Shown piece after piece: positions 28,238-42,900 of a stretch of 64,000 nt of DNA (position 1 is the first letter of the stretch; every line of letters starts with the position of its first letter). Source of the DNA: Podarcis pityusensis (taxonomy: Eukaryota); the NCBI GenBank assembly GCA_964106645.2, contig OZ078259.1; one strand, given 5' to 3'. A program made the translations under genes and the position numbers. The notes below the pieces were generated by a model. That model ran no database searches and was not told where the DNA came from. It saw only the letters and a list, made by a program, of their open reading frames with translations.

Positions 28238-31200
28238 ATCCATTTTGTCAAGAATTTTGAGGGAAATCATGTTTTGATTCATTTTAAATGCTCTTCCTCA
28301 GCAACAACAAATCTCCCTTTCTCTCTCTCTTTTTTAAAGTGGACATTGAAACCCCATATTTTCAATGGGGGAAATTGCCAGTATGAATGGAGCTCAAATG
28401 GTTGACATGAGCCTTTTGCCCTTGGAATAGTATGTAAAGGTGAACAACCAGTTTTGTGCTTTCCCTTGGTCATGCAAGATGTTTTTCTTTTTATCTACTT
28501 CAGTGTGTTGTCAGATCGTCCTACCTGCTTCCTTTTTTTCTTTTCTTTTGATTTGGTGATCAGCATTTTGCTTTGATGCTACAATAATAAATCCCAAATC
28601 AAGAAGAGGTCAAAGGTCTGCTATAGAACCTTTGACCATAAGTCCCCAGATTAAAACCGTACAAAGATCACATTCCTGGGGGAGATAACTCCTGCCACAA
28701 AATAAAAGGGGAAATGATTTTTGCCTATAAATACTGTAGGTGTGGAAGGGCAATACAGAACTGGCTTGGCTCCATATTGACACTTAGTTGGAAGGAAAGT
28801 GTCTCCCTTCATAGAAGAGTCAGTTACATTCCATGTTCTCTGTGATATTTTTGTGTTACCAAGAGACAGAACTCAGGGCTGCTTCATTCTCAGTGACTTC
28901 CATAGAAAGCTTAAGAGGGCAGAGGACAGGACAATGTTTGATGAAGTGCAGGCTGGAATGGGATGGGACACTGCCACACCCACCTCTGCCTGCCCTTAGC
29001 CAGCCCCTCCACCTGCCTGCCCTCCATTGGCATTGCTTGTCAATTTCCTCCTCTTCCTTTGTCTCAAGGTTGCCCTTGTGGAACTCACCAGGGAGTTTTG
29101 TGGCAACAAAACTAGAATTAATTGGCTCCACCTGCCATTGGTTCTTCCTTGTTATTGGCTCTGGCTCTGCTGTTCATGCATTCTGCCTTCACCTAAAGAA
29201 TTCTGGGAGCTGTAGTTTGCCCAGGATGCTGACAGTTTGGAGACCTGCCCCCACTCCCCTCACAGAATGACAGTGCCCAGAGTGGTTTAAGAGTCAATCT
29301 CTCTTTGGGCAAAACTGGGAATTGGAGCTTTGGGAGGGGAATAGTGGTGAGCACCATTAATGAGCTACAGCTCTCAGAATTCATTCTGGGAAGCTGTGAC
29401 TGTTTAAAATTGTATCATAGTGTTTTAAATGTATGATGCGAATACAGCCTTTGTAGGCCTTCTGTCCGTTTGCATGTAGGGATAGCTAACATGAGGGCTC
29501 CTATGTTGTTGGGTTCTTGAATGAGTAAGAGGTGTGTGTGGCAGTCCCTGTAACTCCCCTCTCCTTCGACTCCTGCCCATGCTCATGACATTTTCATGCC
29601 ACAATACAATAAAGGTGTGGGAAGGTTTTTTTGCTGCAAGATACCAACACAGCCACTCTCTGAGCATGTATGTCCATGGATAACCTGGTTCCACCATCCA
29701 CAGTCCATTTTAAATTCCTATTCCTGATGCAACATTGCTTCGGTGGCATTGCAGAAAAATGTAAATGGTTGTCTTGCCACCACCAGATAATCCAACAGCT
29801 TGGGGCCCAGTAGAGGCTGGTTTATTTGGGCAAAAGGGGTGCTGCCCCATTAACCCGAGTCTGCCCTTGGGCAGTCCCCACTGGCCTGATTCCTGACTTA
29901 CAGCCTGTCAGGAGGCGATTCTCTTTGCCATTGGTTCTAGATCTACCTCCTGTTGGGTGTCCTACTTTCCACACCACTGCCGGAAAACACTAACTGGTCT
30001 TCATCAGTGAGCCCATTCTCATGTTCTTTCTCATTATAGCAACAACTAAAGGATAGCTTTCATTGCTGTTTTCAGATTCATTTAAAAGTGCTACGATTAA
30101 AGGGGAATCGGTCAAGACCACAGTAACATTTGGGACCCTTCCTCCATTCTGTGTAGGGTTTGAATTGGTTCATTTGTTTTTGGCTCTACCAAGTCCTCTT
30201 TCAGTAGGCAGCATTCAACTAGGGCTGTAGTCCAGTAAGAGAAATATTAGTCAATGAATGGTAGCAGCTAAAGAATCAATTAATAAATAAAATATGCAGA
30301 AATATGCATATGAGGAAAAACGTTGATTGGTTCAAGAAGGAAACACCCTTTGGTGTTTTTTTTCATAACTCACACATCCAGCAAAGCAGACACCACATCT
30401 GAGAAGAAGTATTCTTTCCTCTCTGATATACATGGAAGGAATGCTTCCAATAAGATACCACATTACCTGCTGGGTGGTTGTTTTTTTGTTAACTTATTAA
30501 AAATAATTTAACAAATTAAAGACCTGTTACCTGCAACCTGATTAATCAAGGGTGCATTTTTCATTGATCCAACCAGTTTTAATAGATTCAGGGATGGGGG
30601 ACCTGTGGTCCTCCAGATGTTGCTGGACTCCAACTCTCATCAGCCCCTAGCTCACAGGGTCAGTGCTCAGGAATGATGGGAACTGTAGTCCAACAAACAG
30701 AGGGCCATAGGTTTCCCCATCCCCTATCTAACCAATGAATCAAATATAGTAGTGGGACTGATTTCTGAGCGAACATGATAAGCTTGTATTGCAGGTGCTG
30801 AAGCCCGAGTTTCAGCTATCTATAGGTCCATGTGAATCTGGAGTAACTGAACGATTGGAGTTCATTAAGGCTGAGTAAGGGCTTGGGGAAAAGCCATAGG
30901 AACAAAGATGAGGACATAGGAAGCTGCTATTGGCCCATCTAACTCAGTACCATCCAGTCTGATTGGTCACTGATCTCCAGGAGCTTTTCCCAGCTGTCTA
31001 GAGATGCCAGGGAACCTGAGACCTTCTGCATGCAAAGCAGATGCTCTGACACTGAACTACAACCCCCCCCCCCCAGCATTGCTTTTTCTACAGTGACTCG
31101 ACTGACATTTCAGGAGGGTCCCAAGGGACATGACAGATTTCTCTCTCTCTCTCAGACCTTCCTAATTAACCCAGATTGGGACAACGGAGCGCTGCATATA

Positions 31201-35793: not shown

Positions 35794-35955
35794 CATAGGG
35801 GTTCATGTGGTCACCTGGCATTTGTGGTGGTGTGAGACCTTGCTGGAAGGGGTCAGTGGCATAGCTGCTCTGATCCATCGCTACAATCTGCTGCTGTGGC
35901 GGTGCAAGCGGCGTATAAGAGGTCATCATCCCCTCCATTCGGTTGGACATCACTT
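35794..35955 (-). CDS. LMX1B: LMX1B coding exon 7, 162 bp (141 bp with the internal donor, ending at 35815)
   Basis: (E)[53 protein letters not shown](G). Acceptor tttgcag; two in-frame donors, CCAG|gtgacc and TATG|gtaaga. Confidence 0.96.
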
Positions 35956-36198: not shown

Positions 36199-36726
36199 CC
36201 GGATTTTTCACTCTATAGGACGCACTTTTCCCCCTCCAAAAATTAAGGGGAAATGTTTGTGCGTCCTATGGAGCGAATGCAGGCTCCTTGGCTTCAGCGA
36301 TAGCAATGCAAAGCCTCCGAAGCGCAGAGGGAGCGCTCCCTCCGCGCTCCTTGGCTTCGGGTTGCTTTTGCTGAAGCCTGGAGAGCGAGAGGGGTCGGTG
36401 CGCACTGACCCCTCTCGCTCTCCAGGCTTCAGGGATAGCCACCTGAAGCCTTCAGAGCGCAGTGCGAGTTTCTGCTGCACTCCACAGGCTTCGGGTTCCT
36501 TTTGCTGAAGCCGGGAGAGCAAGACTCTCCTGGCTTCAGCAGAGAGGGAGAGCTGCGCAGCACCCCTTCAGCCAAGCGGGAGGAGAAATGGAAGGGGCTC
36601 CGTTTCTCCTGCCGCTTCGCTGAAGGGGCACTGAGCAGAGAGGGGGATAATTTTTTTTCTTGTTCTCCCCCTCTAAAACAAGGTGCGTCCTATGGTCCGG
36701 TGCGTCCTATAGAGCGAAAAATACGG
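36199..36726. mobile_element. Young GC-rich Tc1/mariner (pogo/Tc2-like) MITE in intron 6
   Basis: 27-bp TIR CCG(G/T)ATTTTTC(A/G)CTCTATAGGACGCAC, TA TSD, retained CpGs, internal palindromes. Confidence 0.92.
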
Positions 36727-37434
36727 TACACTGCCATCTAGTTCAGCATCCTGTTCTCACAGGGCCCATCCAGATGCCTGGGGGGAACCTACATGTAGGA
36801 CCCAAAGACAAGACCACTTTCTCCTCCTGTGGCTTCATGAAACTGGCATTCAGAAGCATTAATGCCTCTGATCATGGAGGCACAGAACTAGCCTTGTCCT
36901 CCATGAATGTATCCAATCCTCTTTTAAAGCCATCCAAGGTAGTGGATATTATTGCCTCCTGTGGGAGTGAGTTCCATAGTTTAACTATGTACTGCTGGAT
37001 CTTCCAACACTCAGCTTCAGTAGATGCCTATGATGAGTTCTAGTGCTGGGGGGGGGGAGGATCTTCTCTCTCTCTCTTATTTTTTCCATGGCATGCATAA
37101 TCTACAAACTTCTGTCATTTCATCTCTAACTTGCCTTTTCTCTAAAGTAAAAAGTCCCAAATGTTGCAACCTTTCCTTCTCCGCCCCCTTGATCATTTTG
37201 GTTGCCCTTTTCTGAACTTTTCCAACTCTACAGTACACTATCCTATTTGAGCTGGGGCGACCAAAAAAATCACACCCTATTCCAATTGTGATCACACCAT
37301 AGATTTGCAATACAATTCTCAGGATCTTCTCCAAACTCCAGCTACTAAGATTCTTTGGGGGAAGCTATCCCTATTAAATTGTTATCAAACCAATGTGCAG
37401 CATAAGTGAGCCCTAAATCTTTTGCGGCTGCATT

Positions 37435-39595: not shown

Positions 39596-39662
39596 CTTGA
39601 CCTAGTCGCTGTGAATTCTGCTGCTCCTGCTGCTGTTGATGCCTTCGGGCCAATTTCTTCAT
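39596..39662 (-). CDS. LMX1B: LMX1B coding exon 6, 67 bp
   Basis: MKKLARRHQQQQEQQNSQRLGQ(E). Acceptor ...cttcctcag, donor CAAG|gtgaaa. Confidence 0.97.
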
Positions 39663-40789
39663 CTGAGGAAGAAAGGAAAATCAGGACTAAACAGGGGCAC
39701 ATCAATCAAATTCTCACACTGGCTGACTAGATGACTGTGGGAAGCCTGCAAGAAGGACCTGAGTGCAACAACACTCTCCCCTCCTGCTGTTTCCAGCAAC
39801 GGGCATACAGAGGCATACTACTCTGACAGTGAAGGTAGAACATAAGAAGAGCCCTGCTAGGTCAGGCCAATGGCCTTTTAGTCCATCACCCTGTTCTCAT
39901 AGTGGCTGACCAGGTGCCTGTGGGAAGCCTGAAAGAAGGACCTGAGCACAACTGCACTCTGCTCACTTGCAATTCCCAGCTACTGGTATTCAGAGGCATA
40001 ATGCCTCTGACAGTGGAGGTAGAACATAGCCACCATCTCTAGTAGTGCAAGAGTGTCCTTCTAGCAGGCAGTAATGCAGTGACATTGGGGAAGCATTGCA
40101 CAACAACAAATAAAGTGGAATTGTGTGTGGACTAATGTAAAATTGTGGTGTCAATTGTATTTTGCAGAATTCCCCCTTAAAAAAAAAACCAGCACACCAG
40201 TCTGGGGCGGTCCTAGGAGAGGCAATAGATGTGATTCACTGTTCCTCTTCCTATGTATCCACTGTTACTCCTACCCATAGTAGACCAATTAAAATAAATA
40301 AATATGGCCAAAGTAGCATCTTGACTTGAATTCACATATTTCCCTACCTCCCCACTCTGACTACCAACCCCTGAACTATTTCTACTTCTGGAGCTTTTGC
40401 TTCTCACTTTGGGAAAAGTTAAGCAGGGACTGCTCAGGGTATGACACAGGAAGTACAACAAAGAAGGATGCACAAGTCACTTGTACTTCCTGTCCTCCAC
40501 TTCTCCCCCCCCCCCCAATCCTGTAATATCTATTATGCTTGATCGCCATATTCCATACCCCTCAACCGTCCCAATTTTCTCGGGACATCCTGAAATTACA
40601 GAAGCTATCTCAGCTTCTAACTGGATTCTGGAATGTCCCATTTTTTGGTGCTGTGGCTCCTGCGAGAGCACAGCACCAAAAGAGGCAGTGAAGGACCCTG
40701 TGATGATGACAAGAAGGAAGGGTGAAAAGAGCATGTGTGTGAACTTGCATTTCTCAAGGTGTGAGGGGAGAGGGAGAGGGGAGGGGGAG

Positions 40790-40866
40790 AGAAATCCGGG
40801 CGATGGTCACGTGGTTGCACAGTAGAGTCGTGCATCTCTGGGCGGAAGGAGGAGGTGGCAGCAACA

Positions 40867-40897
<31 letters not shown>

Positions 40898-41250
40898 CAA
40901 CAGCAGAATTAGTAGTCGAGCCAGCTTGCTGAGGTCACATATGGCAGTGTTACCCACTACCGTGAGTGCTTCCTTCCTCACACGCCGCTGTGTCGGCCCC
41001 TCCCTCCCCCCCTGCACGGGAGGGGAAGGTGGTGAGTTAGAAAGCGGCTGAGGCATCAAGAAGGGAGAGGAGCACGGCGGAAAGAATCCCAGCGTCGCTC
41101 CAGAAAGGCGGCCATTTTGAGTCCCTCCTACCCTGCGCCTCCTGTTGTGGTTTTGTTTTCTTTCGGGGGGGTGTCTTCTGCCGCGGCCCCCCATTCTCTC
41201 TCTCTCTCTCGTAAGTTTGCTGTAGGAAAGGAAGAAGCGTCCCCCCCGCC
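40790..41250 (+). promoter_or_regulatory. CpG-rich promoter/first-exon-like block
   Basis: About two dozen CpGs in ~460 bp; E-box GGTCACGTGG, GGGCGGAAG, YY1-type GGCGGCCATTTTG, and three plus-strand GTRAGT donors. Confidence 0.45.
40858..40906. repeat. (CAG)n(CAA)n trinucleotide repeat
   Basis: Direct reading. Confidence 0.92.
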
Positions 41251-41869
41251 TTCCCCACATGTACCTTCACTCTTGGACCCCCTAACTCTAACCCACACAG
41301 GGGAATGTCTTCTTTCCCTCCCCTCAGCATGCTGCAGCCTGGCTTAATAACAATACCATGCAGAGTGCTTAAGTTCTCTGTTGAATTGGGGGGGGGGCTC
41401 TTTCTTTTCTCACCCCTTCAGGTTGTGACTAAGCATAATTTGCCCCACATAACATAACACACCCCCTGATTTTATTTGGCAGAATGCTGGAGGGTTTGCG
41501 TAGTCTATGTGCTCCCCTCCTTCTGATGAAAAGCCAAATCTCTTCACCACAGTTAGGGTTGTCAACAAACCATGACCCAAAATGAAATTAGATGCAAATG
41601 TGTGACAGATCTTCAGAGGGATCCATGGGAAACCTAAAGTGGTTGAATAAGATTGGCAAAATGTTCTATCTTGAATAAAAAATAAATTAAAGAGAGCATT
41701 TCTGAGCTCCACTTCAGCTCCTGGGTTGTAGCCAATATTAATCCTAGTCAGAGCAGGCCCACTTAAGTTAATAGATATGACCAGGGTAGGTCCATTAATT
41801 TTAAGTGGGTCTACACTGAGTTGGACTTGGTTAGAACCCGTTCTGTCTTATTGGTAGGCAGGACCTTAC

Positions 41870-41947
41870 CTTTGCTCTTTGATTCTGAAACCACACCTGG
41901 ACAACTCTGACACTGAGGCCTGTTTCAGCTGCTAGTGTCTCCCTAAC
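41870..41947 (-). CDS. LMX1B: LMX1B coding exon 5 (homeodomain helices 2-3), 78 bp
   Basis: Not in the ORF track; read by hand as [26 protein letters not shown] (WFQN motif, Q50). Acceptor ttgcag, donor AAG|gtaagg. Confidence 0.98.
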
Positions 41948-42900
41948 CTGCAACAAAGGTAAAAAGGTGAAATAAGTTGTGGAGCTGAAATGGAAAGTTG
42001 CTGCAATCAAACAAAATGCCTAAGTTCTCTCAACTCTGAGCCCTGCATTTCCAAGAAACTGCAGGGACATCCAGAAGAATAAATAACAGGTTCAATGCTA
42101 AGATTGTAGAGATGGTGAAGTTAATGAGACAGAAGAGATGAGAGTTCAATGAGTCAAATAATGCAGAATCAATTTTATTTTTCTCTGTGTGTGTCCACAG
42201 TCTTTGGACCTACAAAGAATTTGCAGTGCTAAATTCACCATGTCAATGTCTATATTGTATTGTGCTTTTTGGTAGAGAGGTCCCTGGCACGGATTGGCTG
42301 AGTGAGTGTGATGTAATGGAATGTTCACAAACATTCTTCCTGGAAATTGATTTCTTAAAAAAATGAACTGTCAAAAAGTTTGGCTTCTGCAGAAAATGGG
42401 GAAGTTGTCCATTTGGAAGCTATCCAAAGTCACAAAGGACCTAGAGGCAGGAATAGTTTTATATTTGCAGACTTCGAAGTGGAAATAAGTCTACAACATG
42501 TACAGACCACAAATTTAAAGTACACAGTTTCCCTCAAATAATCCTGGGAACTGTGGTTTGATATGAGTGCTGGGAATTGTAGCTCTGTGAGCGGTAAACT
42601 ATAGCTTTTTTGTAGTGTAGAGCCATATGCTTTGCATGTGCCTTCAATGCATGGTGTGTAAGCAGCCATAATCACTGCCAATGGGCAGCATCCTGCCCTG
42701 TATCAGAGGGCAGCAAGCTCAGTTAGGGAACACTTGCACCTGCTGCCTTACACAGCATTATCCGCCTCATTCTACATGGTTGGGCTAACCCTAAACGTAC
42801 GATTCTTTTAGCTAAAGATGCCAGTTGAGGTGTATGTTTTGCTACAACCATGATACAGAATCAGATTGTGAATGGTGGTGTTTGAACAATGACAGCCTAC

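Follow-up and report, generated by a model that had tools for sequence, protein, structure and literature searches.

What is a promoter-like, CpG-rich block doing in an intron of a developmental gene, and where did it come from? The window is the whole 64,000-nucleotide stretch of DNA analyzed here. The preliminary description had reported about two dozen CpGs between 40790 and 41250. We counted 24, with a GC content of 0.59 and a CpG observed/expected ratio (o/e) of 0.60, compared to 0.20 for the whole window. At least 24 CpGs occur in only 6 of 3177 sliding windows of 461 bp. The block is modest in CpG richness, and a comparable patch (36201–36731; 28 CpGs, o/e 0.66) is located just upstream of an exon at 35947 in the same gene. 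The preliminary description had read the block as the promoter and first exon of a host gene packaged between the ends of a hAT MITE, and every motif that it named was found at its position.

The block is bordered by two exons of the host gene.
41870–41947, minus strand: host homeodomain exon (PF00046, E 2e-10; RNA depth 9–19), upstream of the intron and presumably LMX1B exon 5.
39596–39662, minus strand: host exon identified by its translation and the RNA joint 39662–41870, with loose ends at 39596, downstream of the intron and presumably LMX1B exon 6.
RNA contigs from two organisms join 41870 to 39662 and define a minus-strand GT..AG intron of 2207 nt. The homeodomain exon and this joint therefore place the CpG block within an intron and antisense to the host gene. 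This part of the proposed placement in LMX1B intron 5 stands on the Pfam match and the RNA joint; the gene name and the intron and exon numbers are presumptive, taken from the peptide and exon structure of LMX1B as matched in the window translations. LMX1B is a limb, kidney and skin developmental gene. An Rfam search of the window returned only a tRNA-like match at 30999–31066 on the minus strand (44 bits), probably a SINE head, and nothing within the CpG block. Five reads of RNA run X22 leave the homeodomain exon at 41870 with letters that resemble the sequence beyond the next exon, with an agreement of only 0.86. They may represent skipping of the 67-nt exon 39596–39662, which would shift the frame.

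The block lies inside a transposon with the following parts.
40554–41498, plus strand: the complete Pack-type non-autonomous DNA transposon of 945 bp, with a match to a high-copy MITE family at each end; copies L003 and L004 elsewhere in the genome have the same architecture.
40547–40553, no strand: left flank with an eroded target-site duplication; 0/6 matches in exact register at 6 bp, 5/7 at 7 bp, and 4/6 by eye if one base is inserted at the right end.
40554–40686, plus strand: left arm, consisting of a 13-bp terminal inverted repeat (TIR) and subterminal MITE sequence; 74–89% identical to the best-scoring loci among 446 candidates, with the right limit taken from alignment A1.
40687–41459, plus strand: captured cargo, a decayed copy of C16:38377353–38378130, the 3' half of the SBNO1 5' CpG island (66% identity, E 7.7e-73).
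40805–40814, plus strand: E-box, 10/10 bases as in the donor, inherited unchanged.
40857–40906, plus strand: (CAG)n/(CAA)n microsatellite that grew after the capture; the donor has 2–3 units only, and copy L005 has a shorter expansion.
41460–41498, plus strand: right arm and terminal inverted repeat, a variant common to L003 and L004.
41499–41505, no strand: right flank with an eroded target-site duplication, from the same flank comparison as the left flank.

The imperfect inverted ends at 40554 and 41498 are real transposon ends that match the arms of the MITE family. A search of the same genome with the whole element gave the 446 candidates. Among the 40 that were scored, 36 lie outside the window and its cargo relatives and match the left arm, and 35 of the 40 match only the first 100–150 bases. 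The family members that were read are mostly 175–320 bp long, share the left arm, and have a right end that is the inverted repeat of the left. A second sample of 29 loci contains related subfamilies of 138 and about 350 bp. Repeats resembling Sauria SINEs in the loci suggest that the animal is a lizard. Most members read carry no host cargo, and no coding element was found among 58 family loci read with 1.5-kb flanks. The family may already be named in repeat libraries.

The target-site duplication of the family was measured at 17 of 29 loci, those with both ends intact, leaving out eight without a right end, three with an incomplete right end, and one duplicate. At 6 bp, 68 of 102 flank positions match (0.67) compared to 0.29 for mismatched pairs, and every other length from 2 to 10 gave 0.18–0.29, which is chance. 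These data show that the family duplicates 6 bp. A 7-bp family rule was rejected (35/119 positions, control 0.26), as was the canonical 8-bp hAT duplication (30/136 positions, 0.22, control 0.25). The DNA-transposon shell of the proposed hAT MITE is retained, but not its canonical 8-bp or 7-bp duplication. The 5/7 duplication described earlier is present at the window copy and is probably not the true one, since the family makes 6 bp and the exact register gives 0/6. The hAT families with a 6-bp duplication are grouped as hAT6 inside the Blackjack lineage in the cited part of PMC12730594, and the MITE family resembles them in its 6-bp duplication and a short TIR beginning CA. By these two sequence features the family may be called hAT6-like, a putative member of that group. 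IS3EU elements, in the portion of their description used here, also duplicate 6 bp, but they end in TAYGG and have longer TIRs than this family.

The origin of the interior was traced by its best match, about 770 bp on another contig, C16. The matched segment belongs to a CpG island at C16:38376681–38378021 (about 1340 bp, GC 0.66, o/e 0.99) that lies 3.3 kb upstream of the SBNO1 start codon. The SBNO1 start exon at 38381449 is on the same strand and encodes a peptide 82–93% identical to proteins named strawberry notch homolog 1, and AAA_34 exons follow from 38388659, also on the strand of the island. These data show that the donor is the 5' end of SBNO1. The cargo likely takes in part of the non-coding first exon of SBNO1 and the beginning of its intron 1; our guess from the sequence is that the donor first exon ends at GTGAGT near C16:38377757. 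The proposed capture of a host gene 5' end is borne out, the best match being the 5' island of an unrelated gene, an island without transposon ends. The genome search suggested in the preliminary description returned this match and also more than one copy flanked by the shared ends.

The alternative named in the preliminary description was an endogenous intragenic island; it would be a CpG island of LMX1B itself that lies by chance between two separate MITE fragments. The poor target duplication of the window copy is what such an island would have in its favor, but the interior matches a distant locus with E 7.7e-73, and three other loci also have it between these ends. We reject this alternative as almost certainly wrong.

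The direction of copying is recorded in the CpGs. The donor segment has 79 CpGs compared to 24 in the LMX1B-intron copy. Among 141 aligned donor CpG bases, 58 are changed, 44 of them as C>T or G>A; the reverse comparison gave 2 of 11 CpG bases present only in the copy. These counts show that the sequence was copied from the donor to the element. The opposite view holds that the interior is the transposon's own and that the C16 sequence is an insertion whose ends are gone and whose CpGs were retained because of its place in the SBNO1 island. It can point to a segment common to three copies that the donor lacks, and to the donor's own branch of 0.12 substitutions per site. Against it, no arm remnant was detected at either donor junction or in the 10-kb stretches around them, and the nearest left arm is about 46 kb away. 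The island continues seamlessly for about 670 bp upstream of the copied segment, and nothing else in the genome matches this 5' half. Most family members are 140–400 bp long without an SBNO1-like interior, and L003 carries a second, unrelated island from REV3L. We consider the opposite view very improbable.

Comparison to the donor sorts the motifs into inherited and acquired ones. Of the motifs in the preliminary description, the E-box at 40805 alone is unchanged between donor and copy. The ATG at 40941 replaces a decayed second E-box of the donor. The GTGAGT sites at 40962 and 41032 read GCGAGC and GCGAGT in the donor, and the GTAAGT at 41211 reads GTAGCT. The donor has no counterpart of the YY1-like site at 41107; it has a YY1-type site of its own, which the copy has lost by deletion. 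The housekeeping first-exon grammar is not upheld, because the donor lacks the ATG, all three splice donors, and the YY1-like site, and the (CAG)n leader is an expansion. The promoter look was inherited, and most of the exon-like features come from decay. The case is a warning that decay can create promoter-like motifs in such copies.

Four copies of the cargo were found: the window copy on C20, L003 on C3, L004 on C9, and L005 on C1. L004 is broken up by later insertions, and L005 is 3'-truncated and lacks the right end. The window copy, L003, and L004 have the right junction and the right-arm variant in common; the window copy, L004, and L005 have the same cargo left start; and the window copy, L003, and L005 share a segment of about 19 nt not present in the donor. 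In 39 of 529 non-CpG columns, the copies all have one base and the donor another. The shared junctions, right-arm variant, donor-less segment, and 39 columns fit a single capture followed by spread, and their pattern makes one capture with spread to four loci likely. Part of the differences between the copies and the donor may be later changes in the donor. By eye in alignment A1, the donor has G/C and the copies A/T in about 23 of the 39 columns and the reverse holds in about 10; GC-biased conversion in the island after capture may account for the G/C excess in the donor row. Non-CpG distances are 0.14–0.23 between copy and donor and 0.18–0.29 between copies, and the tree of the five sequences is star-like and unresolved (supports of 45 and 70; branches of 0.09–0.14). 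Squamates accumulate about 2 substitutions per 10^9 sites per year. At this rate the element would be some tens of millions of years old.

The flanks differ between the copies, and register matches at 6 bp are 3/6 for L003 and 2/6 for L004. L003 reaches 5/6 with one gap when a younger nested element is set aside. That younger element is inserted in the right flank of L003 and has an 8-bp duplication. The duplications of the three complete copies are poor, so transposition of each is deduced from the shared ends. The insertion is seen in organism A at both junctions and in organism C at the right junction, and RNA contigs of organism B contain interior pieces; no empty orthologous site was found among these three organisms. 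A search with the donor segment returned three copies, all of them among the four already known. This search missed one known copy, so the copy numbers are lower bounds.

One sister is a chimera. L003 (C3:36169183–36170558, L003:627–2002) joins a fragment of the REV3L island to a fragment of the SBNO1 island within one pair of ends. The 5' part of its interior aligns with another CpG island on C3, at a distance of 15 Mb (401 of 591 columns), and this island lies just upstream of a first coding exon matching REV3_N (Pfam) and REV3L proteins in a protein search. A PDB sequence search with the 46-aa REV3L-like exon gave no match. In the REV3L part of L003, 32 of 38 changes are CpG decay in the copy, and a genome search with the REV3L island returned only L003 and three simple-repeat matches. 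A second cargo subfamily with a GC-rich, decayed interior is represented by L010:964–1613, L068:1143–2605, and L070:about 1290–2015 on C9, C8, and C15. A genome search for its donor with the L010 interior gave only two more end-flanked copies, and the L025 interior matched only itself in the genome.

We consider it highly probable that the locus is an old multicopy Pack-type DNA transposon with 6-bp MITE ends around a decayed SBNO1 island, which was likely captured once and then likely spread; the copy that landed antisense here is probably inert. We infer a route of template-switch capture, mobilization in trans, and CpG loss through germline methylation. A MITE would have broken or stalled a replication fork, and the repair template would have switched to the open SBNO1 island and back. 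Either gap filling or FoSTeST, the models of Tan et al. 2021, could have produced the capture; the decayed junctions do not decide between the two, and microhomology at the cargo junctions is too decayed to call. The lengthened element would then have moved by cut-and-paste, mobilized in trans by a putative hAT6-like transposase. A later switch or recombination would have added REV3L sequence to one descendant, and one jump would have landed antisense in the LMX1B intron. Germline methylation of the cargo after insertion would have eroded the CpGs by C>T and G>A changes.

The activity of the copy was assessed with RNA runs from the related organism A, about 12–13% of each run being read at low depth. 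Stranded runs X22 and X24, at 90% likeness, have no plus-strand reads over 40037–42100, all reads being in the host-exon orientation. Depth in these two runs is 0–6 in the intron compared to 6–19 in the exons; no joint leads into the block, and read starts do not cluster. Run X23, at 85% likeness, gave opposite-strand depths of 1.03 (40765–40855), 0.13, and 1.75 (41038–41128) in three block bins. In stretches within the two main bins the donor is 84–88% like the copy, which lets SBNO1 reads map there at an 85% cut-off. An SBNO1 source is likelier for these reads than true low-level antisense RNA. Constraint on the core was not detected relative to the flanks in organism A (2/266 vs 47/1935, p 0.12) or organism C (13/266 vs 46/1121, p 0.61). 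The LMX1B-intron copy keeps 17 of 72 donor CpGs compared to 17 of 160 in the three sisters (Fisher p 0.015 pooled; 0.07–0.17 pairwise), a contrast inflated because this copy was picked as CpG-rich. The higher retention could reflect partial protection from methylation.

These results bear on an alternative of the same origin, in which the LMX1B-intron copy has stayed partly unmethylated and acts as a weak antisense promoter or an LMX1B intronic enhancer in some tissue. The CpG retention, the intact E-box, the X23 plus-strand depth, and the fixation of the insertion in several organisms would all suit such a role. The zero plus-strand depth in X22 and X24, the possible cross-mapping in X23, and the absence of constraint on the core speak against it, as do the selection of this copy for CpG richness, the deleted YY1-type site, and the 5' half of the island, which was not captured. 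We regard a regulatory role as unlikely. The portable antisense promoter proposed earlier is not supported by these reads: X22 and X24 have no plus-strand reads and no joints, and the X23 reads are few and appear at 85% only. The LMX1B-intron copy is probably an inert passenger that is silent today. A regulatory role at LMX1B, if true, would raise the value of the locus; the evidence leans against it.

The element has a host interior with an identifiable parent and is flanked on both sides by one TIR family in the correct orientation, which makes it a Pack-TIR by definition. It is a multicopy Pack-TIR structure at distant loci on C20, C3, C9, and C1. Tan et al. 2021 (PMC8277862), in the part of that survey cited here, report 370 Pack-TIRs in 100 animals, with 281 unique cases of which 4 are multicopy. 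The same part gives the anole zero Pack-TIRs, with no hAT consensus in its annotation, and describes Pack-hAT-N8_XT, a frog hAT with the CAPSL 5' UTR on three chromosomes. Like those animal multicopy cases, the SBNO1-cargo element holds host sequence in non-autonomous TIR ends, has copies off the parent chromosome, and carries a 5' gene cargo. Unlike that set, which was young as described there, it is old, with about 0.2 substitutions per non-CpG site, one copy joins the islands of two genes, and its family duplicates 6 bp. The term "CpG" is absent from the main text of PMC8277862.

Other captures share parts of this design. The bat Helitrons HelibatN3-NUBPL and HelibatN217-TMBIM4 took up promoter, 5' UTR and first-exon sequence together with a piece of intron 1, and captures also followed one another, according to the cited sections of Thomas et al. 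2014 (PMC4224331). They are rolling-circle elements without TIRs in thousands of copies, whereas the SBNO1-cargo element has cut-and-paste ends and four detected copies. Rice Pack-MULEs, as covered in the relevant sections of PMC5861414, are TIR elements derived from GC-rich parental genes with low methylation and open chromatin. They belong to the Mutator superfamily, number thousands, and are 40% expressed, in contrast to a short-TIR element with 6-bp duplications and without clear expression. Anolis hobo_AC elements took up genomic DNA (PMC3014272), a likeness in lizard hAT uptake, but the Anolis hAT families in the table rows consulted from that paper have 8-bp duplications and TIRs other than those of the SBNO1-cargo MITE. 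Literature searches with the TIR sequence and on squamate MITE or CpG-island capture, hAT6 in lizards, and SBNO1 with transposons listed no publication on this element.

Multicopy Pack-TIRs are rare in animals, and the SBNO1-cargo element has a parent that can be traced, a chimeric sister drawing on two genes, and an unusual duplication length. Its copies show that CpG-island sequence has travelled between chromosomes in cut-and-paste transposons of reptiles. They also form a natural experiment in which one island was copied to four sites and CpG loss can be measured at each. Both traced donors, SBNO1 and REV3L, are CpG-island gene starts (2/2). It is a doubtful extension that this abundant MITE family plays in reptiles the part of Pack-MULEs in plants, prefers CpG-island gene starts, recombines and scatters them genome-wide, and left a weak antisense promoter or enhancer in LMX1B.

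Two further observations concern the MITE family. L026 and L027 (C6:88240684 and 88246837) lie 6 kb from each other and do not differ in their ends or flanks; they are a local tandem duplication. In the subfamily of about 350 bp, L087–L092, L096, and L098 have extra DNA between inner and outer right ends that looks like a LINE 3' tail. This subfamily looks like another uptake of neighboring DNA.
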